Below, piece after piece: positions 4,574 to 61,835 of a DNA stretch of 64,000 nucleotides (position 1 is its first letter; each line of letters begins with the position of its first letter). The notes beneath the pieces were generated by a model. It did no database searches, was not told where the DNA came from, and saw only the letters and a list, made by a program, of their open reading frames with translations. This DNA comes from Candidatus Collierbacteria bacterium (lineage in GTDB: Bacteria > Patescibacteriota > Microgenomatia > UBA1400 > JACPES01). The stretch is from assembly GCA_016183365.1 (NCBI GenBank), contig JACPES010000003.1, forward strand, positions 13,726-77,725, read 5' to 3'. Made by a program: the position numbers and the translations under genes.

Positions 4574-5371
4574 GTGAAATTTTTTCTGTGTCCCCTTAAT
4601 TTCAAAGTGAAACGCTTATTCAACTTTCAGAGATTAAAACAGTTGTTGGGCATTATGCTTATCTTGTTGGCTATTGTTTTTAGTCAGACTGTTTTAGTAG
4701 AAAAATTTGGTTTCAGTAACGTCGTTTACGCTCAAGTGCAATGCTGTACCTCACCGGCTCAAGTAACATTTGTTGGCGGAAATGTTTATTGTTCACTTCA
4801 TACCGGAACCGGCATTCCGACAAATTGCTCTGGATCAACCCCTAACTGTGATGTTGAAACTAACCAGTGTATTCCTATTCCCGACATTACTAATCCGCAA
4901 TGCTGTACCTCACCGGCTCAAGTAACATTTGTTGGCGGAAATGTTTATTGTTCACTTCATACCGGAACCGGCATTCCGACAAATTGCTCTGGGAACTGCG
5001 ACGTTCTAACTAACCGATGCATCAATTCTCTCCCCGGCGGCGGGCCGACGATCACCGTCTACGATCCGACGTGCAATTCTGGAACTGGATATTACGGTTA
5101 TTCCGGTGTTAAAAGTGCCTTGGGGTGTTTGCCGACTGATCCGCAAACGTTTATTAATACCGCCACCCCTTGGGCGGTGGGGATTGGAGCCGGAATTGCT
5201 TTTCTACTGGGGCTTTATGGAGCGCTGATGATTGTTATTTCCGCCGGCGACCCGGAAAAAATGCAGGCTGGCAAAGAAATTATTACCAGCGCGATTGCCG
5301 GACTATTATTAATAGTTTTTGCGGTTTTTATTTTAAGAATAATTGGGGTTGATGTATTAAAATTGTTTTAG
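4574..5371 (+). CDS. Secreted protein: duplicated Cys-rich module fused to a VirB2/TrbC-like pilin domain
   Basis: The signal peptide probably starts at MLILLAIVF. Two copies of QCCTSPAQVTFVGGNVYCSLHTGTGIPTNCSG are encoded by a 95-nt exact DNA repeat (4739-4833 and 4898-4992). The C-terminal pilin-like segment is TATPWAVGIGAGIAFLLGLYGALMIVISAGDPEKMQAGKEIITSAIAGLLLIVFAVFIL. Confidence 0.55.
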   Translation: MKFFLCPLNFKVKRLFNFQRLKQLLGIMLILLAIVFSQTVLVEKFGFSNVVYAQVQCCTSPAQVTFVGGNVYCSLHTGTGIPTNCSGSTPNCDVETNQCIPIPDITNPQCCTSPAQVTFVGGNVYCSLHTGTGIPTNCSGNCDVLTNRCINSLPGGGPTITVYDPTCNSGTGYYGYSGVKSALGCLPTDPQTFINTATPWAVGIGAGIAFLLGLYGALMIVISAGDPEKMQAGKEIITSAIAGLLLIVFAVFILRIIGVDVLKLF

Positions 5372-5388
5372 TCAAGAGTCATTAAATT

Positions 5389-5721
5389 ATGTTTATATCA
5401 CTAAGCGTGCTAGGTGTAGCTTTACCCGGAGGGGAAAGAGACCTTTTTTGGAGCGATCCGCTAGCGGGAAGGGGGAAGTTTGATGACATTGGAACGACTA
5501 TTACTTCTCTTCTCCCCTACCTTTTCATCATCGGCGGAATCGTGACGGGCGGAATGCTGATAATCGGCGGATTCGACATTTTAACTTCCATGGGCAGCGA
5601 AGAAAAACTAAAAAGCGGAGCGGAGAGAATCAAAAACGCCTTAATAGGGTTTTTATTGTTGTTCGCGGTTTATTGGCTGGCCCAAATCGCTCAAGTCCTT
5701 TTTAAAATACCTATTTTATAG
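5389..5721 (+). CDS. VirB2/TrbC-like pilin paralog 2
   Basis: Two hydrophobic helices separated by a GG..SMGSEEKLKSGAERIKNALIG loop, the same pattern as the other seven paralogs. Confidence 0.5.
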   Translation: MFISLSVLGVALPGGERDLFWSDPLAGRGKFDDIGTTITSLLPYLFIIGGIVTGGMLIIGGFDILTSMGSEEKLKSGAERIKNALIGFLLLFAVYWLAQIAQVLFKIPIL

Positions 5722-5761
5722 GGCCAAGGGACAAAGGCTAAGGGCTAAAGGCAGACAAAAA

Positions 5762-6121
5762 ATGCAAACAAAAAACAACCAGAGAACTGATTTACATGAA
5801 AGAATTTTTCGTTGGATAATTTCAGTTCTTAAACTATTAAAGACTGTCAATAAAGATGTCATCAGCATAGTAATAATTCAACAGTTGGCAAAATCATGTA
5901 CTTCTGTCGGAGCAAATGACCAGGAAGCAGTTACTTCTTCTAGCGACAAAGACTTTGTTTCTAAATATCAAATTGTAAAAAAGGAGCTTTCCGAAAGTAT
6001 TTATTGGCTAAGAATACTTAAAGAGATGTATCCTGACATTGACATTTCAAGCCAGTTAAACGAAAGCATTGAACTTCTTAGAATCATTAGTAAAATCATT
6101 CTCAACGTCAAGAATCGTTAA
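5762..6121 (+). CDS. Four-helix-bundle protein (23S rRNA intervening-sequence protein family)
   Basis: Signature SCTSVGANDQEAV.SSS.KDF..K..IVKKELSESIYWLRIL. The gene is flanked by the inverted repeats GGCTAAGGGCTAAAGG (5739-5754) and CCTTAGCCCTTAGCC (6173-6190). Confidence 0.6.
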   Translation: MQTKNNQRTDLHERIFRWIISVLKLLKTVNKDVISIVIIQQLAKSCTSVGANDQEAVTSSSDKDFVSKYQIVKKELSESIYWLRILKEMYPDIDISSQLNESIELLRIISKIILNVKNR

Positions 6122-6123
6122 GT

Positions 6124-6900
6124 TTGGTAAAATCTTTTCTAGAAATGAAAAAATCGTTTTCCCTTAGCCCTCATCCCTTAGCCCTTAGCCCTTTTCTCCC
6201 CCGGCACATCGCCATCATCATGGACGGCAACCGGAGATGGGCTAAAGCCCGCGGCCTGGCCGCCGTTATGGGCCATGACAAGGCGGCCCGCGACGTCATT
6301 GAGCCGATTGTTGATAGGGCGATCCAATTGGGAATAAAGTTTTTAACCTTTTGGGCTTTTTCCACCGAAAACTGGAAACGGGATAAAGCCGAAATCAGAG
6401 CATTAATGGGGATTTTCCGGGAAGGATTAGATAAATTGGGCGGTAAACTCAACGAAAAAGGCGTTCGTTTGAACGTCATTGGTGAAATGGAAAAATTCCC
6501 TGCAGATATCCAAGAAAAAACCAAGAAGTATATGGAGCTAAGCCGTGACAATATCCAAATCTCCGTCAGCTTCGCCCTGAACTATGGAGGAAGAGACGAA
6601 ATCCTGCGAGCCGTAAGACGGCTCTTCGAAAAAATTCGAAATTCGAAATTCGAAATTCGAAATTTAAACGAAGAAATGTTTGCGAAATTTCTTGACACCG
6701 CGGATATGCCGGACCCGGATTTGATCATTAGAACCGGCGGCGATCTGCGGTTATCCGGCTATTTTCCCTGGCAATCGGTATACTCGGAGTTATATTTCAC
6801 CAAAACCCTGTGGCCGGATTTCACCCCGAAGGAACTGGATAAAGCATTGGAAGATTACGAAAAACGAGAACGGCGATTCGGTGGCGGAGGGAGAAAATAA
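6124..6900 (+). CDS. uppS: Undecaprenyl diphosphate synthase
   Basis: Motif HIAIIMDGNRRWAKARGL and the usual UPP synthase core are present. The likely start is the ATG at 6145. The N-terminal extension is encoded by the CCCTTAGCC repeat, and an in-frame GAAATTC x4 repeat encodes KIRNSKFEIRNL. Confidence 0.85.
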   Translation: MVKSFLEMKKSFSLSPHPLALSPFLPRHIAIIMDGNRRWAKARGLAAVMGHDKAARDVIEPIVDRAIQLGIKFLTFWAFSTENWKRDKAEIRALMGIFREGLDKLGGKLNEKGVRLNVIGEMEKFPADIQEKTKKYMELSRDNIQISVSFALNYGGRDEILRAVRRLFEKIRNSKFEIRNLNEEMFAKFLDTADMPDPDLIIRTGGDLRLSGYFPWQSVYSELYFTKTLWPDFTPKELDKALEDYEKRERRFGGGGRK

Positions 6901-6902
6901 AA

Positions 6903-6985
6903 AAAATTGCTAAATTGTTATATTGTTAAATTGGAATACGCACCAATTAGTCCTGCAAAGCAGGATCTGGCTCTGCCAGACAATC
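6903..6985. repeat. About 80-nt hairpin repeat element, copy 1
   Basis: ATTGCTAAATTGTTATATTGTTAAATTGGAATACGCACCAATTAGTCCTGCAAAGCAGGATCTGGCTCTGCCAGACAATCCAGCAAT, containing a TCCTGC...GCAGGA stem-loop, followed by a CAATCTA heptamer array. Confidence 0.5.
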
Positions 6986-7030
6986 CAGCAATCCAACAAT
7001 CTAGCAATCTAGCAATCTGACAATCTAACA
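6981..7030. repeat. CAATCYA heptamer array running into the start codon of pilin gene 3
   Basis: CAATCCAGCAATCCAACAATCTAGCAATCTAGCAATCTGACAATCTAACAATG. Confidence 0.65.
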
Positions 7031-7360
7031 ATGTATTTATTCACAGTCAACATCGGCCAAGATTTAAAACTCCAGGACGATACTCCAATTGGCGACGTCA
7101 TCCAATTCCAAAGCGTCGGAGCCTTGATTTCCGCCTGGCTGCCAAATATTTATATTTTAGGCGGGATTATCGTCTTGATTCTAATCATTGTTTCCGGGTT
7201 TATGTGGATTACCAATGCCGGAAATATTAAAAAAATTGAAGAGTCTCAAAAGATCCTGACCTTTGCTATAATGGGTTTTATATTTTTGTTCGGGAGTTAT
7301 TGGATTATTCAAATAATTCAAGTCCTGACGGGAATACCGATATTGAATTCAAGTTTATGA
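7031..7360 (+). CDS. VirB2/TrbC-like pilin paralog 3
   Basis: Hydrophobic helix (ISAWLPNIYILGGIIVLILIIVSG), then FMWITNAGNIKKIEESQKILTFAIMGFIFLFGSYW. Confidence 0.5.
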   Translation: MYLFTVNIGQDLKLQDDTPIGDVIQFQSVGALISAWLPNIYILGGIIVLILIIVSGFMWITNAGNIKKIEESQKILTFAIMGFIFLFGSYWIIQIIQVLTGIPILNSSL

Positions 7361-7830
7361 AAATACTGAATGAAAAATACCGAATACTGAATAAAAAAAA
7401 GGGCGCATCTGACTTCCCTTATTCAGTATTCAGTATTCAGAATTCAGCATTCGTTTCTCTTGGCATCTTTGGCACCATTAAAAATCCTCTCGGCGATACT
7501 TTTGATAAAGCCGGAGGATACGCATCGGTTGAGGGCGGATTGGGGTTATTACTCACCAATCTCATCCGCTTAACTACCGTCGGCGCCGGCATTTGGTTTT
7601 TGGTCAATTTGATTACTGCCGGGGTGATGTATATCGGCTCCAACGGCGAAACCGAAAAAATCACTATAGCTTGGGCTAAAATTTGGCAATCGTTGATCGG
7701 CCTTTTGATAATCGTTAGTTCTTTGACCCTGGCAGCTATTATCAGTAAAGTATTTTTCGGTAGCTACTCCACCATTCTTAATCCGGTAATCTATGGTCCG
7801 GGCAATGCCGGAGGAGGAAAAATTCCATGA
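7357..7830 (+). CDS. VirB2/TrbC-like pilin paralog 4
   Basis: Starts at the ATG at 7357 (the ORF-track start at 7300 overlaps the previous gene). Core is GAGIWFLVNLITAGVMYIGSNGETEKITIAWAKIWQSLIGLLIIV. A TATTCAG heptamer repeat sits in the N-terminal region. Confidence 0.45.
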   Translation: MKILNEKYRILNKKKGASDFPYSVFSIQNSAFVSLGIFGTIKNPLGDTFDKAGGYASVEGGLGLLLTNLIRLTTVGAGIWFLVNLITAGVMYIGSNGETEKITIAWAKIWQSLIGLLIIVSSLTLAAIISKVFFGSYSTILNPVIYGPGNAGGGKIP

Positions 7831-8219
7831 CATTGACAGACATTAAGGCCGGCAATATTGGCGGTTTGCCTGACGGCTACCAGGCTATGCCGGCCTCCGA
7901 CGCTCCGGCCACTTTGGAAAAAATAATTTCCAACACAGTCGGATTTTTTACCGTGGTTGGAGGCTTGACATTTATCATTTATATCGTTTTAGCCGGCTTA
8001 ACCTGGATTACTGCCCGGGAAGAAGATGCCAGACTATCAAAAGCCAAACAAATGCTCACCAACGCCCTGATCGGGCTGGCCCTGATAGTTGTTTCTTGGG
8101 CCGTGGCCGGAATAATCGGGACTATTTTTGGATTTGACATTTTAAACCCGGGAAAATATATTGAAATGATATCGCCTGGCGGGAGCGGCGGCGATGAACG
8201 AGAAAAAAGATCATCATGA
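7827..8219 (+). CDS. VirB2/TrbC-like pilin paralog 5
   Basis: FFTVVGGLTFIIYIVLAGLTWITAREEDARLSKAKQMLTNALIGLALIVVSWAVAGII. It overlaps its neighbours by 4 nt, consistent with an operon. Confidence 0.5.
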   Translation: MTLTDIKAGNIGGLPDGYQAMPASDAPATLEKIISNTVGFFTVVGGLTFIIYIVLAGLTWITAREEDARLSKAKQMLTNALIGLALIVVSWAVAGIIGTIFGFDILNPGKYIEMISPGGSGGDEREKRSS

Positions 8220-8617
8220 AACGAATCTTTTATTTATCTATTTGCCTATTTGTCTATTTGTCTATTCTGTCTGCCTCTGCCTATGCCGCCGGCATCACCA
8301 ATCCGGCTCTTGCGGACGATCTGGGGAGGGGGGATCCGGCGAATGTTTTTGGCCGGTTCGTGGGAAGCTGGTGGGGATTGGCGTATGTCATCGGCGGATT
8401 GCTGTTTTTGCTTTACCTGGTGTGGGGCGGAGTGGAATGGATCATGGGCGGTGGCAATAAAGACCGGATCGAAAGCGCCAAAAATAAAATTTCCAACGGT
8501 ATTTTAGGGCTGACCCTGCTGGCTGCGTCGTTCGCGTTGGTAAAGGCAATTGGATTTGTGTTGGGAATTGATTTATTGGAAACTTTGACTTTTGATTTAT
8601 CCAGACTGGCGCCGTAA
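8216..8617 (+). CDS. VirB2/TrbC-like pilin paralog 6
   Basis: Signal peptide MKRIFYLSICLFVYLSILSASAYA. Core is WWGLAYVIGGLLFLLYLVWGGVEWIMGGGNKDRIESAKNKISNGILGLTLLAASFALV. The signal peptide is partly encoded by a TCTATTTG repeat. Confidence 0.5.
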   Translation: MKRIFYLSICLFVYLSILSASAYAAGITNPALADDLGRGDPANVFGRFVGSWWGLAYVIGGLLFLLYLVWGGVEWIMGGGNKDRIESAKNKISNGILGLTLLAASFALVKAIGFVLGIDLLETLTFDLSRLAP

Positions 8618-9211: not shown

Positions 9212-9547
9212 ATGAGAGTGTGGGCAGTCGGATTAGTCACCAATGATGCTCCGAATTCTTTGGCCGATATTGAAACGGTAATTAAGAATTTATTGGGATC
9301 GGCTGCCAGCCTGATTGGGTTGGCTATTTTTGTGATGCTGGTGGTCGGAGCCTTTCAATACATTACTTCCGGAGCGGACCAAAAAGCTGTGGAAAAATCC
9401 CGACAAGTATTCACTTTTGCCTTGATGGGCGGAGCCGCGATCATAATTTTATGGCTGGTATTTGTTTTCCTGAAAGAATTCACCGGCATTGACTTACTGA
9501 AGTTTAATATTTGTATATTTCAAGATGAATTCTGCAAATTGCCGTGA
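9212..9547 (+). CDS. VirB2/TrbC-like pilin paralog 8
   Basis: ASLIGLAIFVMLVVGAFQYITSGADQKAVEKSRQVFTFALMGGAAIIILWLVFVF. Confidence 0.45.
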   Translation: MRVWAVGLVTNDAPNSLADIETVIKNLLGSAASLIGLAIFVMLVVGAFQYITSGADQKAVEKSRQVFTFALMGGAAIIILWLVFVFLKEFTGIDLLKFNICIFQDEFCKLP

Positions 9548-12408
9548 AAAAATTTACTATTTTGCCAATATTCATGCTTCTGCTCTTGAGTATAAGTTTA
9601 CAACCCACTCCGGCCGACGCTTTGGAAACCTGCGTTCCCCAGCAGATAAATCCCAACGAACCCCATGAATTCCGACCCAATCCCGGGCAAATCTGCACTC
9701 CCGAGATTCCGCAAGCAGCCCGCTTAACCTGCGGCACTGATCTGGTAGCCCAAAAAACCGTCAACGCGGCTCGGGGCGGGACTGGCTGCTCGCCGGCAAA
9801 TCCGACCGTCGGACAAACAGTTACCTGCACTAGGGATCTTAGTGTTGATGTGCCGATTTCCATCGGGCTGGCGGGATTGGAATTACCAATCGCCGGCGTG
9901 GCCAGCAACACCCAAGTCAGCGATACTTTAAACCCCGCCCAAAAAATGAGCCAGTACACCAGTTGGTATCTTCAAGGAGTCAAAGAGGATGGCACCAATG
10001 CCAAAGCCCTGGCCGACTACATGAACGGCATCATCAATAGCACCGGTGGCATCGGTAACCTGAAGCTCCTGTCGCCGGTTTTTAATATCCCCAGCTTCCA
10101 AACGCCCGGTCTGTTTGCCGCCATAGAAGCAGCCGGGGCAAAATTCAGTGAGCTGGATGCTTTCGCCGGCAACACCTACACCTTGGAAGGCCGCAAAGCT
10201 TATGACTGGTACGCCGATTTCCTGAAGGGAAAGGCGGATCAGTACGGCAAAAAAGTGATCTTCACCGAATTCGGTGATTTCGCCACCATCAACACCCAGC
10301 CAGACAACCGCCCGGATGTGGTCGCGACAATGAAGCAAGAGTTTGACCGGACGATGAGTGATGGCAATATTGAATCGGCGTTATATTTCAACGCGCTGGG
10401 AGATAATCCCGGCTTCGGTGGTTTTCGCCTGTCGCCGGATGAGCTGCGGGCGATTACTCAAGGCGCGCCTCGCCGAGCCGGGATTAACTCGGCCTCGCCG
10501 GTAAATGGCGGCGGCGGTTTTGCCACGCGCGTCGCCGACCTTGGTCTGGGTTGGACGCTGGAAATTGCCTACAACCCCAGCGATAAAGACGCTGTCGTCA
10601 GCGCGTTTAACACCGCAATTGCCCGCGGCCTGACACCGATCCTGCGAATCTGCGCCGGCGATGCCTGCGAATTCAGCGATCCGGCCGTCTATGCCCAATT
10701 CCTGCGCGACATTGCTCCCCGGATCAATGGCACCTTTTGGGCGATTGCCGGGCCGAACGAACCGGATATCGAAACTTGGGTAAGTGGAACTTCGAGCGTT
10801 CAGACCGACCAGTTCAGCTTCTTGGGTCCGATCAAAAAACTGGTTTCCGATACCGTCATCGACCAGAAAAAAACCGATCTGATCAATGCCGCAGTCGCCG
10901 GAACCGCGTATAACCAAATTATCGGCTACGTGTACCACAACGCCGTCATTCCTCGGCTGGAAGCAAAGAATTTGCTGCAGCAAAACCCCCGCCAGACTGA
11001 TATCCAGCGGATCCGCCTCACCGATATGGCCAATCATCTTAATCCGGCCTACATCGAAGGGGATCAAGAAGCCCTAAAGTGGTATATCCTCTGGCGCGAC
11101 ATGCCGTTTAGTCAAACCGTGGATCTGCCGGGTGAAATTTTCGCCACCACGTCGCTAGCCGATGCCAACGTCAAAAACGCCAGATTAACAATCACCTCGA
11201 CACTGGCGGACTTCCGGGTGGCCTTCCCCCATTTGGTGGAAGACGACCAAATGAGCCAATTGCTGCAAGCGGTGTTTCGGCCGCTGGGAGTGGCTGAAAC
11301 CAGCGGTTTTTCCGAACCGAATGCGGTGGATTATTCCACCGTCAATCGAGCCACACCGTTTAATACCAACTATTGCGATCTGCGGGAAACTTATAGCAAT
11401 CGCGGCGACAGCCTGGAAACCACCCGAACGATTACCGGCAACTTTAGCTTCACCAAAACCGTTACATATTCTTATACTCATGGAGAAAAAGACGCCAACG
11501 GCAAGCTCCTGACCACGATTGATGTAGATGTGTCGGGGCCGGTGTCGGTTTTCGCCCGCAATCCGCTGTCCATCGACAATATCTACGATCGATTAGTTGG
11601 CGGCCCATCAGCAATTTTTAAAGCCATTTTCCCCAACCCCGATCAAACCCTCGGTGGGATCAAGGACCTGCCGGCGGCAGCGCCGATCTCCATGAATTGC
11701 GGCTCCGGCTGCACGGTGAAACCCGGTAATCAAGAAGGGCGTAAAGCCGAGGTTTTCTTCGCCCACTGGGGCAGCGTGCTGACTTACTTCCACGACAAGC
11801 TCCAAAAAGCCCTTGACCCGCTGGGACGCACTAGCGCAGGTCCGAATCCGCCAGGCGGCGGAGGCTTATCTTGCACTATGCCGATTACTTCCTGCGGCCC
11901 GGTCAATTGGAACCTCGGTCTCTTTGACACTTATTTCAACGCTTACAATTCGGATAACAATAGCTCCTGGAGTCTGATCAAAGAACCATGGGCGCAGCAG
12001 CTGATCGGCCAAACCGCCGGCTGGAGCTGTCCGCAGTTTGTCAGTACCTTGTGGCTTGAGGAATCCGGTGGATCGGCAATCGGGCAGTATGATTTGGGTT
12101 GCATTTATCACCTCGATGGACACAGGGCACTAACCAGTGATCATCGCGGCGGGCCGGCTGATTTTCCCACCTACACCGCCTTTAAAAATCACTATGAACC
12201 CATCCTCAAAGATCAGCTCGCTTGTCTGCGCTCGTATATCGAACCGATCGGTGAAGATTTTCAAACCTTCATGTGTCAGTACAGCGGAGAGACCGATGCC
12301 GATCCGACTAAGCCATTCCGCCAATGCGATACCTTTACTAACAATCCCAATTTCCCCGTCAACATGTGTAAAATCGGCGGCGAAGTGGGAATTGCCACCC
12401 CAAACTAG
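9544..12408 (+). CDS. Large secreted protein (954 aa) with glycoside-hydrolase-like motifs and a Cys-rich C-terminal domain
   Basis: Signal peptide MKKFTILPIFMLLLLSISLQPTPADA. Motifs VIFTEFGDF and WAIAGPNEPD resemble TIM-barrel hydrolase catalytic motifs. Gly/Ala-rich codon use raises local GC. Confidence 0.45.
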   Translation: MKKFTILPIFMLLLLSISLQPTPADALETCVPQQINPNEPHEFRPNPGQICTPEIPQAARLTCGTDLVAQKTVNAARGGTGCSPANPTVGQTVTCTRDLSVDVPISIGLAGLELPIAGVASNTQVSDTLNPAQKMSQYTSWYLQGVKEDGTNAKALADYMNGIINSTGGIGNLKLLSPVFNIPSFQTPGLFAAIEAAGAKFSELDAFAGNTYTLEGRKAYDWYADFLKGKADQYGKKVIFTEFGDFATINTQPDNRPDVVATMKQEFDRTMSDGNIESALYFNALGDNPGFGGFRLSPDELRAITQGAPRRAGINSASPVNGGGGFATRVADLGLGWTLEIAYNPSDKDAVVSAFNTAIARGLTPILRICAGDACEFSDPAVYAQFLRDIAPRINGTFWAIAGPNEPDIETWVSGTSSVQTDQFSFLGPIKKLVSDTVIDQKKTDLINAAVAGTAYNQIIGYVYHNAVIPRLEAKNLLQQNPRQTDIQRIRLTDMANHLNPAYIEGDQEALKWYILWRDMPFSQTVDLPGEIFATTSLADANVKNARLTITSTLADFRVAFPHLVEDDQMSQLLQAVFRPLGVAETSGFSEPNAVDYSTVNRATPFNTNYCDLRETYSNRGDSLETTRTITGNFSFTKTVTYSYTHGEKDANGKLLTTIDVDVSGPVSVFARNPLSIDNIYDRLVGGPSAIFKAIFPNPDQTLGGIKDLPAAAPISMNCGSGCTVKPGNQEGRKAEVFFAHWGSVLTYFHDKLQKALDPLGRTSAGPNPPGGGGLSCTMPITSCGPVNWNLGLFDTYFNAYNSDNNSSWSLIKEPWAQQLIGQTAGWSCPQFVSTLWLEESGGSAIGQYDLGCIYHLDGHRALTSDHRGGPADFPTYTAFKNHYEPILKDQLACLRSYIEPIGEDFQTFMCQYSGETDADPTKPFRQCDTFTNNPNFPVNMCKIGGEVGIATPN

Positions 12409-12411
12409 TAA

Positions 12412-13992
12412 TTGATGGACAAATTTTGTGATATGCTATTTGTAATGAAGCGCGTCTGCCGCCGGCTGACAACTATCTTAACTATCTTAACGATTCTGGC
12501 CCTGCTGCGGCCAGTCTTCGCCCAGGACATCAAGGAAAATCCCTATTGGCGCCAGAGCACCACTTCCCAAGTCCAGGAGGTTGAGGTGGGGCCGGAAAAC
12601 GAAGTCACCGCTCCCCGCTACACCTATTTCCAAACCAATACTACTTTTAACGCCATCAGCGCCGGAATTCTCGATCCCACCGGCCAAAATCAATCGGCAG
12701 CTGTGCCGCTATTGGGCCGGTCCATTGCCTTGCTTACCGGCCGGCCGCCGGTCCAAACCCATGAATATCTGGCGTATATGGCAAGCAAGGCTGGGTTTAT
12801 TGACCAGGCTTACGCCCAGTCAAGAGGCGGGTTTGAGGTCTTACAGCCGATTCAAAAATTATGGATTGCCACCCGAAACATAGCCTACTTGATCACTTCC
12901 CTAACTTTAGTAGTAATTGGATTTATGATCATGCTGCGGAAAAAAATCGACGCCCAGACAATTGTCGGGGTCGAACAGGCTTTGCCGAATTTGGTCATCA
13001 CCCTGCTTTTAATTACCTTTAGCTACGCCATTGCCGGATTTGTGATTGATATGATTTATTTCGTGTCGTTTTTTGGAATTAAATTGCTAGCCCTGAATAA
13101 CATTTTTGCTCCAGGAGACTACGGCAGTGCCGCCATTGAAACCATCAGAACTAAATCCATCTTCTCTATCGGCATCCGGGATCTATTCCGGATTGGCGGC
13201 ACCAGCGCCGGCTCGGCCGAAACCGCCGCGGACGCCGTCGGCAATTTAATCGCGGAATTATTGGGCGAGGGCAAACTGTTCGCGGCTACGCAAATAATTT
13301 CCCAGCCGATCGCTTACGTCATTTTCGCCGTCGCGATTTTGTTCGCGGTTTTTAAGCTGTTCTTTAGCCTTTTGATGGCGTATATCCAAATAATTTTATT
13401 GGCCATATTGGGGCCGCTGCAACTGATGCTCAACGCCTTGCCGGGGAGTGACGCATTTTCTAAATGGTTTAGAAATCTTTTGGCTAACGCCATGGCTTTT
13501 CCGGCTGCCATTATGATGCTGGTCTTCGCCGCCGCTCTGATGGGCCAAACCGGCGAACATTTTAGGATTGCCGACGACATTGGTTTTACCGATAGCGTAA
13601 GCGGGGTTAAATGGATCCCGCCCTTGGTTTTCGGAAGCGGGGCCGGAGCCACCAATCCCGTCGACGCGGTCATCGCCCTGATCGGAATCGGGATCCTGCT
13701 GATGACACCCAAGGTCGTGGATATGGTCAAAGAAGCCATCCAAGCCCCCGAATTCAAGTACGGCTCCGCCATCGGCGAAGCGGTTGGGTTTGGGTGGTCA
13801 CCAATTAAACGTGGTTGGGGAGCGGGAACCGACATAGCAAGACAAGAAAGACAATTCAGAGAACAAGCCAGAATTTGGGGCAAAGAAGATTTATCACCAT
13901 ATCAACCGCCAACAGGACAACAACCTACTCGCTGGACAGATTTGAGGGGTCGCCTCGGTGCATTTGGACGCCGATTTACGGGTTTGCAATAA
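12412..13992 (+). CDS. Polytopic membrane protein, VirB6/TrbL-like
   Basis: Signal peptide followed by at least six TM helices (e.g. LITSLTLVVIGFMIML and LVITLLLITFSYAIAGFVIDMIYFVSFFGI). It sits directly downstream of the pilin array. Confidence 0.4.
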   Translation: MMDKFCDMLFVMKRVCRRLTTILTILTILALLRPVFAQDIKENPYWRQSTTSQVQEVEVGPENEVTAPRYTYFQTNTTFNAISAGILDPTGQNQSAAVPLLGRSIALLTGRPPVQTHEYLAYMASKAGFIDQAYAQSRGGFEVLQPIQKLWIATRNIAYLITSLTLVVIGFMIMLRKKIDAQTIVGVEQALPNLVITLLLITFSYAIAGFVIDMIYFVSFFGIKLLALNNIFAPGDYGSAAIETIRTKSIFSIGIRDLFRIGGTSAGSAETAADAVGNLIAELLGEGKLFAATQIISQPIAYVIFAVAILFAVFKLFFSLLMAYIQIILLAILGPLQLMLNALPGSDAFSKWFRNLLANAMAFPAAIMMLVFAAALMGQTGEHFRIADDIGFTDSVSGVKWIPPLVFGSGAGATNPVDAVIALIGIGILLMTPKVVDMVKEAIQAPEFKYGSAIGEAVGFGWSPIKRGWGAGTDIARQERQFREQARIWGKEDLSPYQPPTGQQPTRWTDLRGRLGAFGRRFTGLQ

Positions 13993-14047
13993 ATTAACTC
14001 ATCCCCCTCCACGACACCAGCAAACGATTTTTTATTCTCGTTTTGTA

Positions 14048-16420: not shown

Positions 16421-16424
16421 AGCG

Positions 16425-17474
16425 TTATCCTCCGTTCCTTCCCAACATAGACTTTAAAACACGCAAAAGTATGCCAATGTCAGCTCCGGGAGGAATCAAT
16501 CCGATGTCAGGCGAAAAACCCAAAGCGTCATCTCTTCTGAGTCTTTCGTATAGATTGATTAATGATCCGTTCTGTTTTTCTAAATCATTTGGAAATTGAC
16601 CAACTAGTGTCTGTCTCAACTCAACAAGGAAATTAGCAGCAATCTGTTCACCTGTATTCTGTCGATCTGAACTAAGTTTTAGTACATTCTCTATCGCAAA
16701 TTGATGTTGAACCTCTTCACCTAAACGTAGTAATATAACACGCAGCTCGCTCCTATTTCCATTCCATGCCGATAAATTCCCAGAAAGTCGTCTGGGGTTA
16801 GCGTCAATTTCTTTTATCATGCTCTGTAGAGTGAGAAGTGTTCTGTTTTTATCTATTCCAAGATTTCGTTGAAGGCCAGCTAGCCACTGTTGCTGTTCTG
16901 ACGGAAGCCCTATACGCCAATCAGCCGGTTGAATAGCCGCCTGCGGTTCGGGCGGCGACGTCGCCGGACGGCGGGCCTCGCGGATAATTTCCTCAATCGG
17001 CCGCCTGTCGCCCCCGGCTTGAGCCGCCCTAATCGCTTCGTAAATTTTCCGATATTCTTCAAAAGTACAAAGTGGCTTCCCGCCAACCGTTATCTGTTCT
17101 CCGTCACCCAAATCCTTCTGCCGCTGGCTCTCGATATATTGACCTATCTTATCAAGATTTACCTGCCCCGCCATCCCCGCAAAATATTTCTCCACCGGAT
17201 CGACCCCCCCCCCTCCCCCCATCTCCTCCGGATTTGATTCGTCCACCTTTCCCGCCGCCCGCAATTGTTCCAGCGGAGTCGTCGCCGGCCCAAACATTTG
17301 TTCGACATCGGCAGGCCCCAAATCCCTCACTTCGCCAACTCCCGCGTTCGCCTCGTGATTAGTTCCAAGCTGCGGAGCTGTACCTTCCGCCAGTCCGGCC
17401 GGAAACTGTCCTACCGGTAGCCCCTCCGGTCTTTGTCCTGGTGATAATTGTTCTGTGTTCATCTGATCAGGCAT
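16425..17474 (-). CDS. Hypothetical protein (349 aa)
   Basis: Intact ORF with a Gly/Pro-rich N-terminal region; tightly linked to its neighbours. Confidence 0.45.
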   Translation of the reverse strand: MPDQMNTEQLSPGQRPEGLPVGQFPAGLAEGTAPQLGTNHEANAGVGEVRDLGPADVEQMFGPATTPLEQLRAAGKVDESNPEEMGGGGGVDPVEKYFAGMAGQVNLDKIGQYIESQRQKDLGDGEQITVGGKPLCTFEEYRKIYEAIRAAQAGGDRRPIEEIIREARRPATSPPEPQAAIQPADWRIGLPSEQQQWLAGLQRNLGIDKNRTLLTLQSMIKEIDANPRRLSGNLSAWNGNRSELRVILLRLGEEVQHQFAIENVLKLSSDRQNTGEQIAANFLVELRQTLVGQFPNDLEKQNGSLINLYERLRRDDALGFSPDIGLIPPGADIGILLRVLKSMLGRNGG

Positions 17475-17519
17475 TGAGAAGATTATAGCAATGTGAAGAG
17501 ATAGCTACAAACAGAAAAA

Positions 17520-18095: not shown

Positions 18096-18129
18096 ATATA
18101 AAATAAAATTTCGGATTGTAAATACCGTC

Positions 18130-22105: not shown

Positions 22106-22336
22106 ATAAATTGAATCCTACTGCCCGTCAGATAAAACCACAAACACCCGCCGTCTTCAATTACTTCAATTATTTAAATAATTGAAGTCCCAACCAATTT
22201 ATATAAAACAACTATCATTAACCGGAAATTTCTTAATCCATCAATCATGTAAATTGACTAAGCTATAGCTTAGTCAATTTACAACATAACCTTCAAACCT
22301 GGTAGCCTTTTTAACCTTTAACCTGTTAGCCTGTTC

Positions 22337-22960: not shown

Positions 22961-22974
22961 AAGTATATGATAAC

Positions 22975-23060
22975 AAAAGGTTAAAAGGCTAACAGGCTAA
23001 AAGGTTAAAAAGGTTAACGGGTTAGAAAGGTTAGAAAAATTAAAAAGTTGAAAAGGCTGA
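22975..23060. repeat. Degenerate AAAGGTT/AAAGGCT tandem array (left flank of the four-helix-bundle gene)
   Basis: GGTTAAAAGGCTAACAGGCTAAAAGGTTAAAAAGGTTAACGGGTTAGAAAGGTTAGAAAAATTAAAAAGTTGAAAAGGCTGAAAA. The reverse complement of this array recurs at 23462-23570, 22290-22335 and 37093-37140. Confidence 0.6.
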
Positions 23061-23458
23061 AAATACAACAAACCATGCAAACCAATAAAGGATATTTTAG
23101 TATTGAGGACACCGGCACGTATAAATTAGCGCATAAAGCTGGAGCAATTGTATGGAACGAAGTCCAAAAATGGTCATGGTTGGCCAAACGAACCTTAGGG
23201 GCTCAATGGATTAATTCAACTGATTCCGTTTCTGCAAATTTAGTAGAAGGTTTCGGAAGATTCCATAAAAAGGATCGCGTTAAGTTCTACTATAACGCCA
23301 AAGGATCAGCATTAGAAAGCCTCGAATGGGCGCGAAAAGCAATAGAAAGAAAGTTAATCGACGAATCAAAGGCAAAAGAAATTATTGCAATCCTAGAACA
23401 GCTTCCTCGAGAGATAAATTTTCAGATAAAATATTCTATGGAGAAATTAAAGAAGTAA
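23048..23458 (+). CDS. Four-helix-bundle protein (23S rRNA intervening-sequence protein family)
   Basis: Signature WINSTDSVSANLVEGFGRFHKKDRVKFYYNAKGSALESLEWARKAIERKLI. Flanked by inverted arrays of AAAGGTT-type repeats (22975-23060 and 23462-23570). Confidence 0.65.
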   Translation: MKRLKIQQTMQTNKGYFSIEDTGTYKLAHKAGAIVWNEVQKWSWLAKRTLGAQWINSTDSVSANLVEGFGRFHKKDRVKFYYNAKGSALESLEWARKAIERKLIDESKAKEIIAILEQLPREINFQIKYSMEKLKK

Positions 23459-23559
23459 TTTTATTTTTTGAGCCTTTTCAACCTTTCTATCCTTCTAACT
23501 TTTCGGTTTTCTTTTTTAACCTTTTTGGCCTTTCCAGCCTTTTTAACCTTCTGACCTTT

Positions 23560-23862
23560 TTATCCTGCCTTCAAATACCCGTCCGCAAAGGCTTCCTGTG
23601 CCCGTTGCACGAGTTGGTCAATTGTCATTCCCGTCCTCTCCGCGAACAGCTCTTCCATCCGCTTTTTGGCCTGCTCCTCATCACCAATCGCTTCCACTTC
23701 TTTCATATCCTCTTCCGTCAAACTCGTCATTAAAGCCGCGTACACGTCCAAGGCCGACAATTTCGCCACCCCGGACAACAACTGCCCGACCTCTTCGTCG
23801 GTCTTTCCCTCGGTTTTAAGTTTGGCAAGCCAATCAGAAAAGACTGTTGTTGGTTGATTCAT
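23560..23862 (-). CDS. Small acidic helical protein (100 aa)
   Basis: Intact ORF, last gene of a 3-gene operon that overlaps the upstream gene by 4 nt. Confidence 0.4.
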   Translation of the reverse strand: MNQPTTVFSDWLAKLKTEGKTDEEVGQLLSGVAKLSALDVYAALMTSLTEEDMKEVEAIGDEEQAKKRMEELFAERTGMTIDQLVQRAQEAFADGYLKAG

Positions 23863-34035: not shown

Positions 34036-34168
34036 AGATAGAAAATAGATATTCTTGATCTTGAATTCTTGACAGCTTGACTATCTGATCAAGGAATCAA
34101 AAAATCAATCCGCCAGCCGGCGGATCAAGTTCAAGAATTTCAAGAATATCCATCTTCAAAATATCTTA
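34026..34168 (+). repeat. About 140-nt palindromic intergenic element, copy B (between the prgI-like gene and ORF 34178)
   Basis: Shares the GATGTCTTGAAG start, the CTTGATCTTGAA(TT)CTTGAC block and the ATCAAGTTCAAGAA...TATCCATCTTCAAAATATC end with copy A. Its centre is CCGCCAGCCGGCGG. Confidence 0.6.
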
Positions 34169-34177
34169 AATTAACAA

Positions 34178-37092: not shown

Positions 37093-37188
37093 AAGGTTAA
37101 AAGGATTAAAAAGGTTGAAAGGTTACAAGGCTGGAAGGTGAGTTTTTTTCAACCTGCCAACTTTTAGCCTGCCGACCTGGATTTCTCG

Positions 37189-39931: not shown

Positions 39932-39948
39932 GAAGAAAAAAAGACGAA

Positions 39949-39977: not shown

Positions 39978-39980
39978 GAA

Positions 39981-40151: not shown

Positions 40152-40160
40152 AAAGAAGGA

Positions 40161-40240
40161 ATGGCTACAATGGCTACAATGACTACAATGGTTTGATACT
40201 TTTAACCATTTTAACCATTTAACCATTTTAACCATTTAGT
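40161..40240. repeat. Heptamer tandem-repeat arrays (GGCTACAAT x3, then TTTTAACCA x4)
   Basis: Direct tandem repeats seen in the sequence between rpmH and rnpA. The same TTAACCATT motif recurs at 1383-1425 and 48858-48900. Confidence 0.7.
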
Positions 40241-40243
40241 CGT

Positions 40244-40575: not shown

Positions 40576-40601
40576 CAATTCAGCAATGTACCAATGAAAT
40601 A

Positions 40602-40819: not shown

Positions 40820-40955
40820 AAATTTCCAATTTACAATTTACAATTTTCAATCAAATCTCAATTAACCAATTTTCAATTTTTAATTAAATGCTTGTGTCAT
40901 TTAAAATTCATTCTTTGAAAATTCATTGTAAATTGAAAATTGAGAATTGAAAATT
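40820..40955. repeat. AT-rich tandem-repeat array (CAATTT/CAATTTA/GAAAATT units) upstream of yidC
   Basis: TCCAATTTACAATTTACAATTTTCAATC...AATTGAAAATTGAGAATTGAAAATTAG. The left and right halves are inverted copies. Confidence 0.6.
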
Positions 40956-56930: not shown

Positions 56931-57878
56931 ATGACACGAATCGGAAGAAAAATCTTCTCTACCCTGCTATATCATTCTATTTTTGACTATCCTTTAACTA
57001 TTGATGAAATACACCACTATTTAATTTCCGAGAAAATTGTGCCGTTGTCAACGTTAAAAGAGGAAATTGGTGTTTTGCTAAAAGTTGGGAAAATTTTGTC
57101 AGGCGGCGAATTCTTTATTTCATCATCTATCATCCATTATCCATTATCCATCATTGTCCTCCGCCGCCACCGGAAGGATATAAGCCAAAAGAAACTGATG
57201 ATTGCGAAACGGGCATCAAGGGTCATTTCAATAATTCCGTGGGTCAAAATGATAGCCATTACCGGAGCTTTGGCGATGGAAAACGTCGACGAGAAAGACG
57301 ATATTGACCTTATGATTATTACCTCAAAAAATCGCCTATGGATTGTCCGCCCATTGGTTCTCTTGTTTGTCTCTCTTTTCTTCAAACGCCGTCATCCTTT
57401 GTCCAACGCTACAACTAACCACCAATCCGGCGGAGCCGGATCCCGCTCCGCGGGACAACTAATAACCCATAACAATGAAATTTGTGTAAATTTGTGGCTT
57501 GATGAATCTGCTCTGGTTATTCCCGAAGGCCAACGAAATCTTTACACTGCCCATGAATTGGCCCAAATGAAGCCGATTGTCAACAAAGAAAAAACATATG
57601 AAAAAATGCTTATTCGGAATAAATGGGGAGAAAAATTCTTAGCAAATTTTTGGTCAACAATTCAGCAATTTAACAATTTAACAATTAACAATCAGCAATT
57701 TGCTACTAACAACCCGTTGAACTTACTGAATCTATTTCTCTTTTGCCTCCAATTTACTTATATGAAAGCAAAGATGACCAACGAACGCGTCTCGCTTCAT
57801 GCCGCTTTCTTTCATCCGGGGAACAGGGCTGATACAATTCTTACCGCATATGACCGTCTTCGTCACCGGGATTTTTGA
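56931..57878 (+). CDS. Nucleotidyltransferase-fold (Pol-beta superfamily) protein
   Basis: ITGALAMENVDEKDDIDLMIIT is a GS...D.D-type NTase motif. Two heptamer repeats are in frame (SSSIIHYPLSII and QQFNNLTINNQQF). Confidence 0.4.
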   Translation: MTRIGRKIFSTLLYHSIFDYPLTIDEIHHYLISEKIVPLSTLKEEIGVLLKVGKILSGGEFFISSSIIHYPLSIIVLRRHRKDISQKKLMIAKRASRVISIIPWVKMIAITGALAMENVDEKDDIDLMIITSKNRLWIVRPLVLLFVSLFFKRRHPLSNATTNHQSGGAGSRSAGQLITHNNEICVNLWLDESALVIPEGQRNLYTAHELAQMKPIVNKEKTYEKMLIRNKWGEKFLANFWSTIQQFNNLTINNQQFATNNPLNLLNLFLFCLQFTYMKAKMTNERVSLHAAFFHPGNRADTILTAYDRLRHRDF

Positions 57879-58269
57879 TTTGTTGCACATCGAGCATCTG
57901 AATTTTTTGCGCGCCGCTAAGAAATTGGGAGGCAAACTGGTGGTGGGGATTGAATCTGATGCCAGAACAAAACAGTTGAAGGGGTCAAATCGGCCAATCA
58001 TGAATCAGGCTGAAAGAAAACAAATGCTGGAAGCCTTGGATTGCGTCGACGAAGTCATAGTTTTGCCCGATAAATTTAACTCCGATCAAGAATATGAGAA
58101 AATACTTTTGTCGGTTGGGGCGGATACTTACGCAGTATCGGAAAACAGTCCCTTTATGGAAAATAAAAAAAGAATTTGTCAGAGAGCCGGAGTTACGATT
58201 AAGGTTGTTAATCGGTATAATCCTGAATATTCGACTACTAAATTGATTGAAAAATTGTCATATTGTTAA
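57846..58269 (+). CDS. Cytidylyltransferase-like (HxGH) nucleotidyltransferase
   Basis: VFVTGIFDLLHIEHLNFL is an HxGH motif, as in RibL/TagD-like enzymes. The likely start is MTVFVTG; the ORF-track start at 57799 overlaps the previous gene. Confidence 0.55.
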
Positions 58270-58340
58270 ATTGTTAATTGAAATACACGCCAATTAGTCC
58301 TGCGAAGCATGATCTGGCCCCGCCAGACAATCTAGCAAAT
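58258..58340. repeat. About 80-nt hairpin repeat element, copy 2
   Basis: TATTGTTAAATTGTTAATTGAAATACACGCCAATTAGTCCTGCGAAGCATGATCTGGCCCCGCCAGACAATCTAGCAAAT, about 85% identical to copy 1. It lies immediately before the start of the YidC-like gene. Confidence 0.5.
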
Positions 58341-59830: not shown

Positions 59831-60142
59831 ATGGCAATGGCAAAATTAATTGACCCCAAATCCCTTAAACCCCTACCGGGATATATTCTAGTTGAACCGG
59901 TAAAGGCCGACAAGAAAACCATTTCCGGAATTTATTTACCCGACTCTCACGACGAAAAACCCCAACAGGGGGTGGTTTTGGCTGTAGGCGGAGATTGGGA
60001 GACCGAGCATGGCGCCAAAATAGCCTGTCCGGTTAAAAAGGGAGACCACGTGATATATAAAAAATGGGGCGGAAATGACGTTAAGATCGGTGAAGTAGAA
60101 TACCAGTTCCTTAAATTTGAGGATGTGTTAGCAATAATTTAA
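59831..60142 (+). CDS. groES: Co-chaperonin GroES
   Basis: IKPLPGYILVEPVKADKKTISGIYLPDS, about 100 aa, immediately upstream of groEL. Confidence 0.9.
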   Translation: MAMAKLIDPKSLKPLPGYILVEPVKADKKTISGIYLPDSHDEKPQQGVVLAVGGDWETEHGAKIACPVKKGDHVIYKKWGGNDVKIGEVEYQFLKFEDVLAII

Positions 60143-60215
60143 AATTTCAGATTTCAGAATTCATATTTTCTGAAAAAATCTGCAATCTGAAATATAAAAT
60201 CTGAAATAATTCAAT

Positions 60216-61835
60216 ATGGCAAAACAATTACTTTTTTCTGATCAGGCTCGGAATAAACTCATTTCTGGAGTTAATCAGCTGGCCAAAGCGGTTATCACTA
60301 CTTTGGGACCTCGGGGCCGTAATGTCGCTTTGGATAAAAAATGGGGGGCTCCGGCCGTGGTCCACGACGGAGTTTCAGTTGCCAAAGAAATAGAACTGAA
60401 AGATCCTTTTGAAAATATGGGAGCCCAGTTGGTGAAGGAAGCAGCCAGCAAAACCAATGACGTGGCCGGCGACGGAACCACCACGGCTACGGTTTTGGCT
60501 CAAACTATCGTTTCCGCCGGTATGAAAAATATTACCGCCGGGGCTAACCCTATGCTGATTAAACACGGCATTGACAAGTCGGTTGAGGCGTTAGTAACCG
60601 AATTAAAACGGATAGCCAAAGACGTTAAGCCCGAAGATTGGGAATCGGTGGCGACTATTTCTGCCGGCGACCAGAAAATCGGGAAAAAGATTGCCGAGGC
60701 CCTGAAATTGGTCGGACGTGATGGGTTGGTAGAAGTGGAAGAGGGCAAAGGTTTTGAAATCGAGATTGACCATAAAGAGGGGATGGCCTTTGATAAAGGC
60801 TACGCTTCTCCATATTTTTCCACTAACGCCGACACCATGGAATCGGAAATCAGCGATGCCTATATTTTAATTACAGATCAAAAAGTCAGCTCTATCTCCG
60901 ACCTTTTACCATTCTTGGAGAAATTCGTCAAAGTTAGCAAGAATTTGGTAATCGTAGCCGACGAAGTCGAAGGCGAAGCCTTGGCGACCTTGGTGGTCAA
61001 CAAAATGCGCGGTTCATTTAATGTTTTGGCAGTTAAAGCTCCGGGATTTGGCGACAGGCGCAAGGCCATGCTGGAAGATATCGCGATTTTAACCGGCGGG
61101 TCGTTTATTTCTGAAGATGCTGGCCGGAAATTGGATTCGGTAACCGTGGAAGATTTGGGCCGGGCCGATAGGGTGATAGCCGATAAGGATAATACCAGAA
61201 TTATCGGCGGCGGTGGAGCAAAGGCCGCAATTCAAGCCCGAATTCAATCGATTAGATCAGAGATGGACAGGACTACCAGCGACTTTGATAAAGAGAAATT
61301 GCAGGAGAGATTGGCCAAGCTGTCCGGCGGAGTGGCGGTAATCAGTGTCGGGGCGGCAACGGAAGTTGAGCTTAAAGAGCTCCAGGAAAGAGTCAAAGAC
61401 GCGGTAGAAGCGACAAAAGCGGCGATAGAAGAGGGAATTGTGCCGGGCGGAGGGGTAGCCTTGCTAAGATCGGCCAAAGTTTTGGATAAATTGACCGTCA
61501 GCGGGAATGACGAAAAAGTCGGAGTCGACATTATGCGCGACGTTTGCCAGCAACCCTTAAGATGGTTGGCAACGAACTCTGGCATGGACGCAGGTTGGGT
61601 GGTGCGGAAAGTTGCCGACTCGGCTGTCGCGGATTACGGTTTTGACGCCCTGACTCTTGATTTCGGTTCGATGCTCAAGAAAGGGATTATCGATCCGGTC
61701 AAAGTTACCAGAACCGCTTTGCAAAACGCGGCTTCGGTGGGATCGATGATTTTGACCACGGAGGCCTTGGTTACAGATATTGAGAAAAAAGACGATAAAT
61801 CATCTACTCCGGACATGTCCGGGATGGACATGTAA
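60216..61835 (+). CDS. groEL: Chaperonin GroEL
   Basis: [15 protein letters not shown] and [10 protein letters not shown], 539 aa, with a C-terminal GM-rich tail (MSGMDM). Confidence 0.95.

Follow-up and report, generated by a model that had tools for sequence, protein, structure and literature searches.

Why should genes for 23S rRNA intervening-sequence (IVS) proteins lie between protein-coding genes, enclosed by inverted arrays of short repeats? This question is raised by a 64-kb stretch of DNA from Candidatus Collierbacteria, an ultra-small bacterium of the Microgenomates in the candidate phyla radiation (CPR); the whole stretch that was analyzed is referred to as the window hereafter. 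Two such features (cassettes 1 and 2) exist in it, and their four-helix-bundle proteins are referred to as IVP1 and IVP2, and the cassette proteins in general as IVPs. The initial annotation regarded each feature as a mobile or formerly mobile unit. The comparison set comprised about 100 other genomes, in which the relatives' loci are numbered from L001 onward, and tandem arrays were called by Tandem Repeats Finder (TRF). Our conclusion, held with moderate confidence, is that each feature is an IVS-like foldback cassette outside rRNA, composed of an IVP gene and complementary arrays of 7–9-nt units, and that it is gained, lost, and replaced as a unit. The best reading of such a cassette is that it is the non-rRNA counterpart of the 23S rRNA IVSs that bear an open reading frame (ORF).

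The S23p/IVS-encoded four-helix-bundle proteins were described in 1993, and structures have been solved since 2006. The assignment of both genes to this family was borne out by the curated profiles: IVP1 and IVP2 scored 43.3 and 59.7 bits for PF05635 of Pfam (cut-off, 33.8), and 62.2 and 62.6 bits for TIGR02436 of NCBIfam (cut-off, 24), respectively. IVP1 is 100% identical to an NCBI entry named 'four helix bundle protein'. The two proteins are too divergent to match each other by phmmer, and a phmmer search against all six-frame ORFs found no third copy in the window. The AlphaFold2 model of IVP1 (pLDDT 92.5) has helices at residues 4–28, 33–57, 62–89, and 96–118, and its best Foldseek matches are 2rld (TM score of about 0.8), 2gsc, and Avd (4dwl, 8ub7); the predicted fold is the four-helix bundle of the solved family members. 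By phmmer against the PDB sequences, 2rld was also found at E = 3e-10. The PDB entries of 2gsc, 2rld, and Avd are pentamers, and the superfamily of the IVPs is that of Avd (PMC10053308). A weak match of IVP1 residues ~42–99 to histone H2B (phmmer against PDB, E of 6e-4 to 0.06) is probably a helical or compositional similarity.

The flanks had been described as inverted copies of a repeat array, and the alignment of the arms confirmed this. In cassette 1, the left arm begins at the stop codon of a pilin gene (5389–5721), period-7 arrays are present at 5720–5752 (×4.7) and 6161–6193 (×4.7), and the arms 5720–5756 and 6156–6192 are 76% complementary over 37 nt, with 86% in a 22-nt core. In cassette 2, the right arm ends at the stop codon of a minus-strand gene (23560–23862), a period-8 array (22975–23056, ×9.8) and a period-9 array (23513–23566, ×6.1) were found, and the arms of 44–53 nt are 74–80% complementary. 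In the minimum-energy RNA folds, the arms pair and the whole gene lies in the loop (z = −2.2 and −4.8 for cassettes 1 and 2, respectively). The cassette takes up the whole intergenic spacer, starting at the stop codon of the preceding gene and reaching to the start codon of the next. The arms are thus inverted repeats, as had been claimed, and not classical terminal inverted repeats (TIRs): each is an array built from a small vocabulary of units. The annotated coordinates of the IVP1 gene stood, and those of the IVP2 gene needed a change at the start: TTG 23048, the start in the ORF list, falls within the left array, and judging from the homologues of 125–128 aa, the start is most likely ATG 23075, which gives 127 aa.

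The occurrence of such flanks was evaluated with the flank-complementarity score, i.e., the local alignment of the 120-nt upstream flank of a gene with its reverse-complemented 120-nt downstream flank. This strict score took the place of RNA duplex energies, which were dropped as an arm statistic because they discriminate poorly: any purine-rich arm pairs with any pyrimidine-rich arm. The controls were 183 other genes in the same loci, with a 95th percentile of 10; IVP1 and IVP2 scored 15.0 and 23.5, respectively. A genome scan with an alignment of the IVP1 subfamily provided 80 CPR loci, 74 of which had both flanks usable; the first alignment (A1) was too diverse for the scan and the narrower A2 was used, so that the 80 loci represent the IVP1 subfamily only. 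The median score was 16.5 for the 74 IVP genes, whereas it was 7.0 for the 183 other genes, and 92% and 81% of the former exceeded the 95th and 99th percentiles of the controls, respectively (Mann–Whitney p = 1.6e-31). The arms lie close to the gene: the median gap to the ATG is 13 nt, and that between the stop codon and the downstream arm is 18 nt. No rRNA gene harbors any of the 80 loci, and the window itself has no rRNA according to Rfam. The statement that this family is usually found inside rRNA therefore failed in the sampled loci, and the family name is misleading for these copies.

These scores bear on the possibility that the repeats are generic products of slippage in intergenic regions, similar to the short tandemly repeated repetitive (STRR) sequences, and that genes lie between them by chance without any cassette. 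The window offers material for this explanation: it contains about 80 short tandem arrays and at least four strong short-loop array hairpins without an ORF, as compared with none in the shuffled sequence, and two non-IVP genes are also bracketed by arrays. However, the score exceeded by 92% of the IVP genes is exceeded by only 5% of their neighbors. With the results on lineage, polarity, and the empty site given below, we consider this explanation extremely unlikely.

The second sample comprised 14 plasmid copies of another IVP subfamily from cyanobacteria or Gemmatimonadota. Clear inverted heptamer arrays, which are STRR-like, were found in eight of them, with units such as GTAGGGA/TCCCTAC, GGGAACA/TGTTCCC, and GGGGAAAA/CCCTTTTC; three copies are truncated by insertion sequences. 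Several sit within operons (cas6-cas4, cmr2-cmr3, and nrdB-nrdA). On the cyanobacterial plasmids of L178, L180, and L184, the IVP gene and heptamer arrays lie inside CRISPR-Cas operons (cas6/cas4; cas10/cmr2 and cmr3), and the arrays of L178 are direct (AAAAGCT ×14 and AAAAGCC ×10).

Sequence comparison indicates that the repeat vocabulary tracks the gene lineage, not the host genome. Among pairs with unrelated upstream contexts (judged on the 300 nt beyond the upstream arm), the sharing of 7-mers between arms climbs from 0.07 to 0.33 with protein identity (rho 0.38). Within a genome, divergent paralogues have different vocabularies, but the left and right arms of any one cassette use the same. 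Generic repeats would not be expected to follow the protein lineage across unrelated contexts in this manner, nor to differ between paralogues of the same genome. In addition, 215 of the 248 locus pairs whose IVPs are at least 70% identical have no homologous 1.2-kb context on either side, and the IVPs can far exceed their neighbors in similarity (e.g., 100% for the IVP and 68% for the neighbor). The architecture could be read in detail in a well-sampled group: its left end is an array of the units AATAACCC, AATAAACA, and AATACTACC followed by AATCAAT and the ATG, and its right end is the stop codon, ATTGATT, and an array of TGTTTATT, GGGTTATT, and GGTAGTATT, which finishes 0–6 nt before the ATG of the next gene or overlaps that ATG.

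The polarity from gene to arm is also fixed, which is another feature that generic repeats do not explain. Read along the sense strand of the IVP gene, the arm rich in purines precedes the gene in 68 of the 74 CPR loci, in 9 of 9 for the window cassettes and their orthologues, and in 8 of 8 cyanobacterial copies (85 of 91 in total), while other genes show no bias (115 of 207). A symmetric inverted repeat in DNA predicts no fixed gene orientation; the polarity thus points to a strand-specific role. Where the two neighbors point the same way, the IVP gene is co-oriented with them in 31 cases and opposed in 4 (two-sided binomial p ~3e-6), and among the remaining neighbor pairs the convergent ones (23) outnumber the divergent ones (12). 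An early impression from L001 and L005, that the arms pair in the sense RNA only, was withdrawn since the G·U asymmetry was not significant.

These findings have to be compared with a cut-and-paste DNA transposon, in which the arrays would be multi-site TIRs, as are the ends of Tn7 or Mu, and the IVP would be the transposase or a DNA-binding subunit. The ends are indeed inverted and multi-site, several copies per genome occur at unrelated sites, the vocabulary of the arms changes together with the protein, and both empty and occupied sites are found. Against it, the IVP is a 120-aa four-helix bundle without a nuclease or recombinase fold, whose nearest structures are the pentameric S23p proteins and Avd, and a strand-specific role linked to transcription is indicated by the fixed polarity and the 31:4 co-orientation. 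The junction with uppS, the gene for undecaprenyl-diphosphate synthase downstream of cassette 1, provides further evidence on this point.

At this junction, empty, occupied, and replaced states were found. A metagenome scan with UppS yielded mostly distant UppS (≤57% identity) and was useful only for L093–L100; the decisive empty sites came from a UppS protein search and contig look-ups, with or without an IVP present. L187 and L189 share the SpoIID-pilin-pilin-UppS synteny with the window, and their UppS is 78% identical to that of the window; their pilin–uppS gap is a 27-nt spacer with neither gene nor arrays, and their UppS has a short N-terminus (MPKTPQHVAIIMDG). The absence of the gene and of the arrays alike is contrary to the expectation for generic repeats. 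In L188, which shares 93.9% UppS identity with L189, the site is occupied by a divergent IVP gene (54.5% protein identity to IVP1) with AATACTGA/TCAGTATT arms. L190 has CGTCCTT units fused to uppS, with the contig starting inside the arm and the start codon outside the view; L191 carries yet another vocabulary at this site; and in L192, the gene belongs to the IVP2 subfamily and the units are of the AAATTGTTA type, with the called uppS start (GTG) following the array. In L100, a distant CPR genome, a member of another IVP subfamily with GGAAAGC/GCTTTCC arms lies between a diphosphomevalonate-decarboxylase-like gene and uppS; among its relatives, L094, L097, and L098 are empty at the site and L096 has an ORF-less array hairpin only. 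At least five vocabularies thus occur at the uppS site. The short N-terminus of L187 and L189 resembles that of the distant empty sites, and the empty state is therefore probably ancestral; if so, the uppS junction received cassettes repeatedly. The supposition of a mobile or formerly mobile unit gains support from these empty (L187, L189) and occupied (L188) sites, and from the 215 pairs without shared context.

The comparison also clarified how the uppS gene accommodates the cassette. It had been proposed that the right repeat encodes an N-terminal extension of UppS, and this agrees with the following results. The start codon and the N-terminal ~17 residues come from the right end of cassette 1, with residues ~5–17 (SLSPHPLALSPF) encoded by its right arm. 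About 6 residues precede HVAIIMDG in the UppS of empty sites, as compared with 17–27 arm-encoded residues in the occupied ones, and the arm is read as the UppS N-terminus wherever the upstream start codon is visible (the window and its orthologues, L188, and L100). Units 2 and 5 of the right arm (CCCTCAT and CCCTTTT) are exactly the two whose consensus would give an in-frame TAG in uppS. Comparison of the occupied and empty junctions shows a replacement of the spacer and of the initial uppS codons, not a clean insertion, which is a difficulty for the transposon, as is the lack of a visible target-site duplication; we consider that explanation distinctly unlikely. A perfect heptamer array (AAATTCG ×4.7, 100% matches) was also observed at 6632–6664 within the uppS coding region, where it encodes EKIRNSKFEIRN.

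Within their own subclade, the window cassettes have a quieter history. Syntenic orthologues were found in L001, L005, L006, and L191 for cassette 1, and in L007, L009, and L010 for cassette 2, with IVP identities of 67–89%, similar to those of the neighboring genes. The arms are present in all of the orthologues, and their units co-vary: GGGCTAA/TTAGCCC of cassette 1 corresponds to GGGAAGA/TCTTCCC in L006, and AAAGGTTA/TAACCTTT of cassette 2 to AATGGCTA/TAGCCATT in L010. Vertical conservation at these loci without repeats, which would have contradicted the initial annotation, was thus not found. The dN/dS values (0.14–0.18 for IVP1 and 0.05–0.08 for IVP2, i.e., 0.05–0.18 overall) indicate that both proteins are under purifying selection. 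The window cassettes look like old, stable, vertically inherited, functional residents of the subclade.

Such residents may be taken for domesticated regulatory modules, in which the IVP binds the flanking arrays as operators or RNA sites and the patchy distribution reflects gene turnover. The strong purifying selection, the synteny of both copies within the subclade, the separate arm vocabulary of each protein lineage, and the homologue Avd, which binds nucleic acid in the ribonucleoprotein of diversity-generating retroelements (the 8ub7 match), are all in accord with this. On the other hand, the neighbors are functionally unrelated across sites (uppS, cas, nrd, and phosphoribosyl-pyrophosphate synthase genes), near-identical IVPs occur in different contexts (the above pair of 100% and 68%), and different cassettes replace each other at one site. 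A purely regulatory module is, in our view, unlikely.

For the foldback cassette, the following mechanism can be proposed. The arms would be co-transcribed with the IVP gene, since the gaps of ~13 and ~18 nt leave no room for a promoter or terminator and the co-orientation is strong. Once transcribed, the arms may anneal to each other, so that the gene is looped out and the stop codon of the preceding gene comes close to the start codon of the following one; an insertion within an operon could thereby be tolerated even in a streamlined genome. By analogy with the rRNA IVSs (PMC4990558), RNase III might cut this long, imperfectly paired stem. Because each lineage has its own vocabulary, the IVP, as an Avd-like pentamer, may bind the repeat units of its own cassette. 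Hairpins that lack an ORF and use these vocabularies could be miniature derivatives or landing sites, and the candidate routes of movement are recombination between cognate arrays, a trans-acting enzyme, and an RNA intermediate. The last of these would be central if the cassette were a retroelement, with the IVP serving as an Avd-like cofactor of a reverse transcriptase encoded elsewhere and the cDNA of the foldback transcript entering intergenic hairpins. The membership in the Avd superfamily, the co-orientation with host transcription together with the strand-specific polarity, and a stem that would join the transcript ends are compatible with this speculative explanation; the window, however, has no reverse transcriptase, template repeat, or variable repeat, and neither poly-A nor another retroelement hallmark was seen. 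We judge it very unlikely.

Several results weigh against the foldback cassette. As for the flanks, about 8% of the CPR IVP copies lack clear arms, 2–3 of the 14 plasmid copies (cyanobacterial and Gemmatimonadota; L178 and L185) have direct, not inverted, arrays, and two non-IVP genes of the window are bracketed as well. The order and number of units vary, and the arms mirror each other only imperfectly; the arms are thus vocabulary arrays rather than a strictly selected helix. The wobble test, meant to distinguish complementarity at the RNA level from that at the DNA level, gave no strand-specific signal, with 134 sense-compatible and 107 antisense-compatible transitions (p = 0.09) and transversions as common. 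As for transcription, the scans detected no convincing promoter or terminator around both cassettes, and IVP2 is antisense to both of its neighbors, i.e., in the rare orientation class. As for movement, the cassette encodes no recognizable catalytic protein, its single ORF being a four-helix bundle of 119–127 aa; no reverse transcriptase domain was found by Pfam in 36 window ORFs (30 large ones, the cassette genes, and neighbors), and no rnc (RNase III) gene lies within the 64-kb window. The vocabulary of a cassette is not enriched within 2.5 kb of it (landing-pad test, p = 0.62). Finally, the check for target-site duplications advised at the outset showed none at the occupied and empty junctions, where the fuzzy array ends could hide a short one.

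The positions of the cassettes and of the other arrays are summarized in Table 1.

Table 1. Positions in the window of the two cassettes, uppS, and the other repeat arrays
Feature	Position	Strand	Description
Left arm, cassette 1	5720..5756	+	Purine-rich heptamers GGGCCAA/GGGACAA/AGGCTAA/GGGCTAA
IVP1 gene	5762..6121	+	119 aa, PF05635/TIGR02436 four-helix-bundle
uppS	6145..6900	+	Undecaprenyl-diphosphate synthase; start ATG 6145
Right arm, cassette 1	6156..6196	+	Pyrimidine-rich CCCTTAG units, inside the UppS reading frame
ORF-less hairpin	7362..7451	+	AATACTGA / TCAGTATT units, vocabulary of the L188 cassette
Third array	22292..22335	+	TTTAACC/TGTTAGCC units, complementary to the left arm of cassette 2
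Left arm, cassette 2	22969..23063	+	8–9-nt units AAAGGTTA/AAAGGCTA
IVP2 gene	23075..23458	+	127 aa (most likely start, ATG 23075); subfamily distinct from that of IVP1
Right arm, cassette 2	23461..23566	+	TAACCTTT/AGCCTTTT units
ORF-less hairpin	37093..37180	+	IVP2-type vocabulary (AAGGTTAA ... CAACCT/AGCCT), between convergent genes
ORF-less adjacent opposed arrays	40160..40238	+	AATGGCTAC / TTTTAACCA, rpmH-rnpA spacer
ORF-less array hairpin	40828..40955	+	yidD-yidC spacer, 57-nt arms
Inverted arrays	57656..58277	+	AACAATTT (57656–57700) and AAATTGTT (58252–58277) around a cytidylyltransferase-like gene (57799–58269)
ORF-less array hairpin	60128..60223	+	ATTTCAG / AAATCTG units, upstream of groEL

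Judging from their units, the ORF-less hairpins with cassette vocabularies look like miniature relatives of the cassettes. The hairpin at 7362–7451 has an orthologue in L188 and is absent in L187 and L189, where the spacer is 2 nt. The arrays at 40160–40238 share their vocabulary with the arms that flank the IVP2 orthologue of L010, the AATGGCTA/TTAACCAT arrays of the window match the L010 cassette, and the right arm of the IVP2-subfamily cassette of L192 has a unit closely similar to the AAATTGTT-type arrays (TTAACAATT / TTAGCAATT). Outside its own cassette, the IVP2 vocabulary is overrepresented in the window (321 vs 180±18), and that of IVP1 is not. Near cassette 2, the third array (22292–22335) is 82–86% complementary to the left arm over 28 nt, and a gene for a 207-aa membrane protein (22337–22960, minus strand) is bracketed by this array and that at 22983–23027, with a flank score of 28. 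In L007 (2821–3000), a PIN/MazE toxin–antitoxin pair replaces the 207-aa gene, of which only a 5′-end remnant stays beside the left arm of the cassette.

Other observations on arrays in the window are as follows. An origin-type region (37189–41744) contains minus-strand dnaN and dnaA and plus-strand rpmH-rnpA-yidD-yidC, and all spacers of the rpmH operon are filled with short tandem arrays or array hairpins (40160–40238, 40339–40364, 40565–40595, and 40821–40955). A repeated ORF-less element occurs at 6895–7040, 58240–58345, and 47655–47765, directly upstream of the gene starts 7031, 58339, and 47757, respectively; it consists of a AAATTGTT-type array, a ~55-nt core (containing CCAATTAGTCCTGCAAAGCAGGATCTGGCTCTGCCAGACAATC) with a small hairpin, and a ACAATCTA-type array, and two copies are ~85% alike in the core while the third is partial. 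At 47757–50004, a fused Sua5/YrdC-TsaE gene is followed by tsaD, with arrays in or between them (48073–48090, 48618–48645, 48861–48898, 49091–49115, and 49269–49303). A type-IV-secretion-like gene set typical of CPR bacteria lies at 4574–8617 and 32845–37092, including several T4SS_pilin/TrbC-like small genes, a PrgI-family protein, and a TraG/VirB4-like ATPase, and most large ORFs near these genes (9544–19245 and 23859–27043) have no Pfam match. Among the relatives, a ~130-nt, strongly palindromic insert (tacgagtttcgca...tgcgaaactcgtga) in L024 (2843–2990) displaces the right arm of a cassette that is otherwise typical from the stop codon and is probably a separate miniature element. The CPR-type cassette contigs of L020, L022, L026, and ~25 other loci are titled 'uncultured Gammaproteobacteria bacterium' (metagenome-assembled genomes of binchicken / SRP co-assemblies), and one is titled Methanosarcinales; these titles look like placeholder or wrong taxonomy.

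How do the cassettes relate to known systems? In the rRNA IVSs with an S23p ORF, the terminal inverted repeats are cleaved by RNase III (PMC4990558), and these IVSs are regarded as selfish and horizontally acquired (PMC4990558, PMC11270868). The cassettes resemble the IVSs of 23S and 16S rRNA (Leptospira, Coxiella, Xanthomonas, and the CPR insertions) in that an S23p/PF05635 protein is the sole ORF and complementary ends form a long stem around it, as was found for the window cassettes. However, they sit in spacers between protein-coding genes without an rRNA helix (0 of the 80 loci), their arms are tandem arrays of 7–9-nt units whereas the IVS has a simple 28-bp inverted repeat, and one cassette arm can be translated within the neighboring gene.

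The STRR and heptamer arrays were described in 1990, and the name STRR was coined for cyanobacteria, while the host here is a CPR bacterium; the TRF periods of 7, 8, and 9 are of the STRR type. For the STRR hairpins between cyanobacterial genes, transcript stabilization or translational coupling has been proposed (PMC2670836), and in Xanthomonas, inverted pairs of the GGGAATC heptamer occur in intergenic spacers (PMC4692102). These are likewise intergenic arrays of ~7 nt, often forming inverted hairpins between co-transcribed genes, and the ORF-less hairpins of the window are similar to them. Unlike the STRRs, the cassette arrays bracket a four-helix-bundle gene and have lineage-specific units of 7–9 nt in both CPR bacteria and cyanobacteria. 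Four-helix-bundle genes are unmentioned in the repeat papers PMC4692102 and PMC4679880, and the literature search, which covered few subscription journals, found no paper that joins 'helix bundle' with the STRR name or S23p genes with tandem arrays. The link between the four-helix-bundle genes and tandem-repeat arrays is thus apparently undescribed, as far as this incomplete coverage goes.

With Avd of the diversity-generating retroelements, the IVPs share the fold and the superfamily (Foldseek 4dwl, 8ub7), and a related cassette protein matches NF033474 weakly; they are, however, below the NCBIfam cut-off for the Avd equivalog (80 bits), and the IVP gene is alone between its arrays with no reverse transcriptase, template, or variable repeat nearby. 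As in classical TIR transposons, copies occur at non-homologous sites and an empty/occupied polymorphism exists, but no transposase or recombinase was found, and we know of no transposase for these cassettes. Eukaryotic foldback (FB) transposons have long inverted termini built from short tandem repeats. FB transposons and miniature inverted-repeat transposable elements are similar to the cassettes in their inverted ends of tandem units, copies with and without an ORF, and dispersed sites; they differ in that the cassette host is bacterial, the internal gene encodes a four-helix bundle, and no target-site duplication was seen.

A broader reading may be entertained only tentatively, and we regard it as rather doubtful: the IVPs would be the sequence-specific part of widespread, unrecognized foldback cassettes that spread 7–9-nt arrays in cyanobacteria, Xanthomonas, Bacteroidota, and CPR bacteria, each lineage recognizing its own unit; the rRNA IVSs would be copies landed in rRNA hairpins, and the ORF-less hairpins would be non-autonomous derivatives.

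The cassette would make one testable problem out of two old puzzles, namely the role of the S23p/IVS protein and the origin and purpose of the STRR/heptamer arrays. It offers a candidate nucleic-acid ligand for the protein, namely the repeat units that flank its own gene. The same architecture is available in cultivable hosts (Nostoc, Synechococcus PCC 7002, and Xanthomonas), some of which already have RNase III mutants (PMC5829567). Annotation artefacts are also explained, such as ORFs over-extended into arrays, odd N-termini, and contig breaks at such spacers. Lastly, the cassette illustrates how essential, co-transcribed genes of a streamlined CPR genome can tolerate an insertion between them, and shows that such an insertion can give the downstream gene a new start codon and N-terminus.

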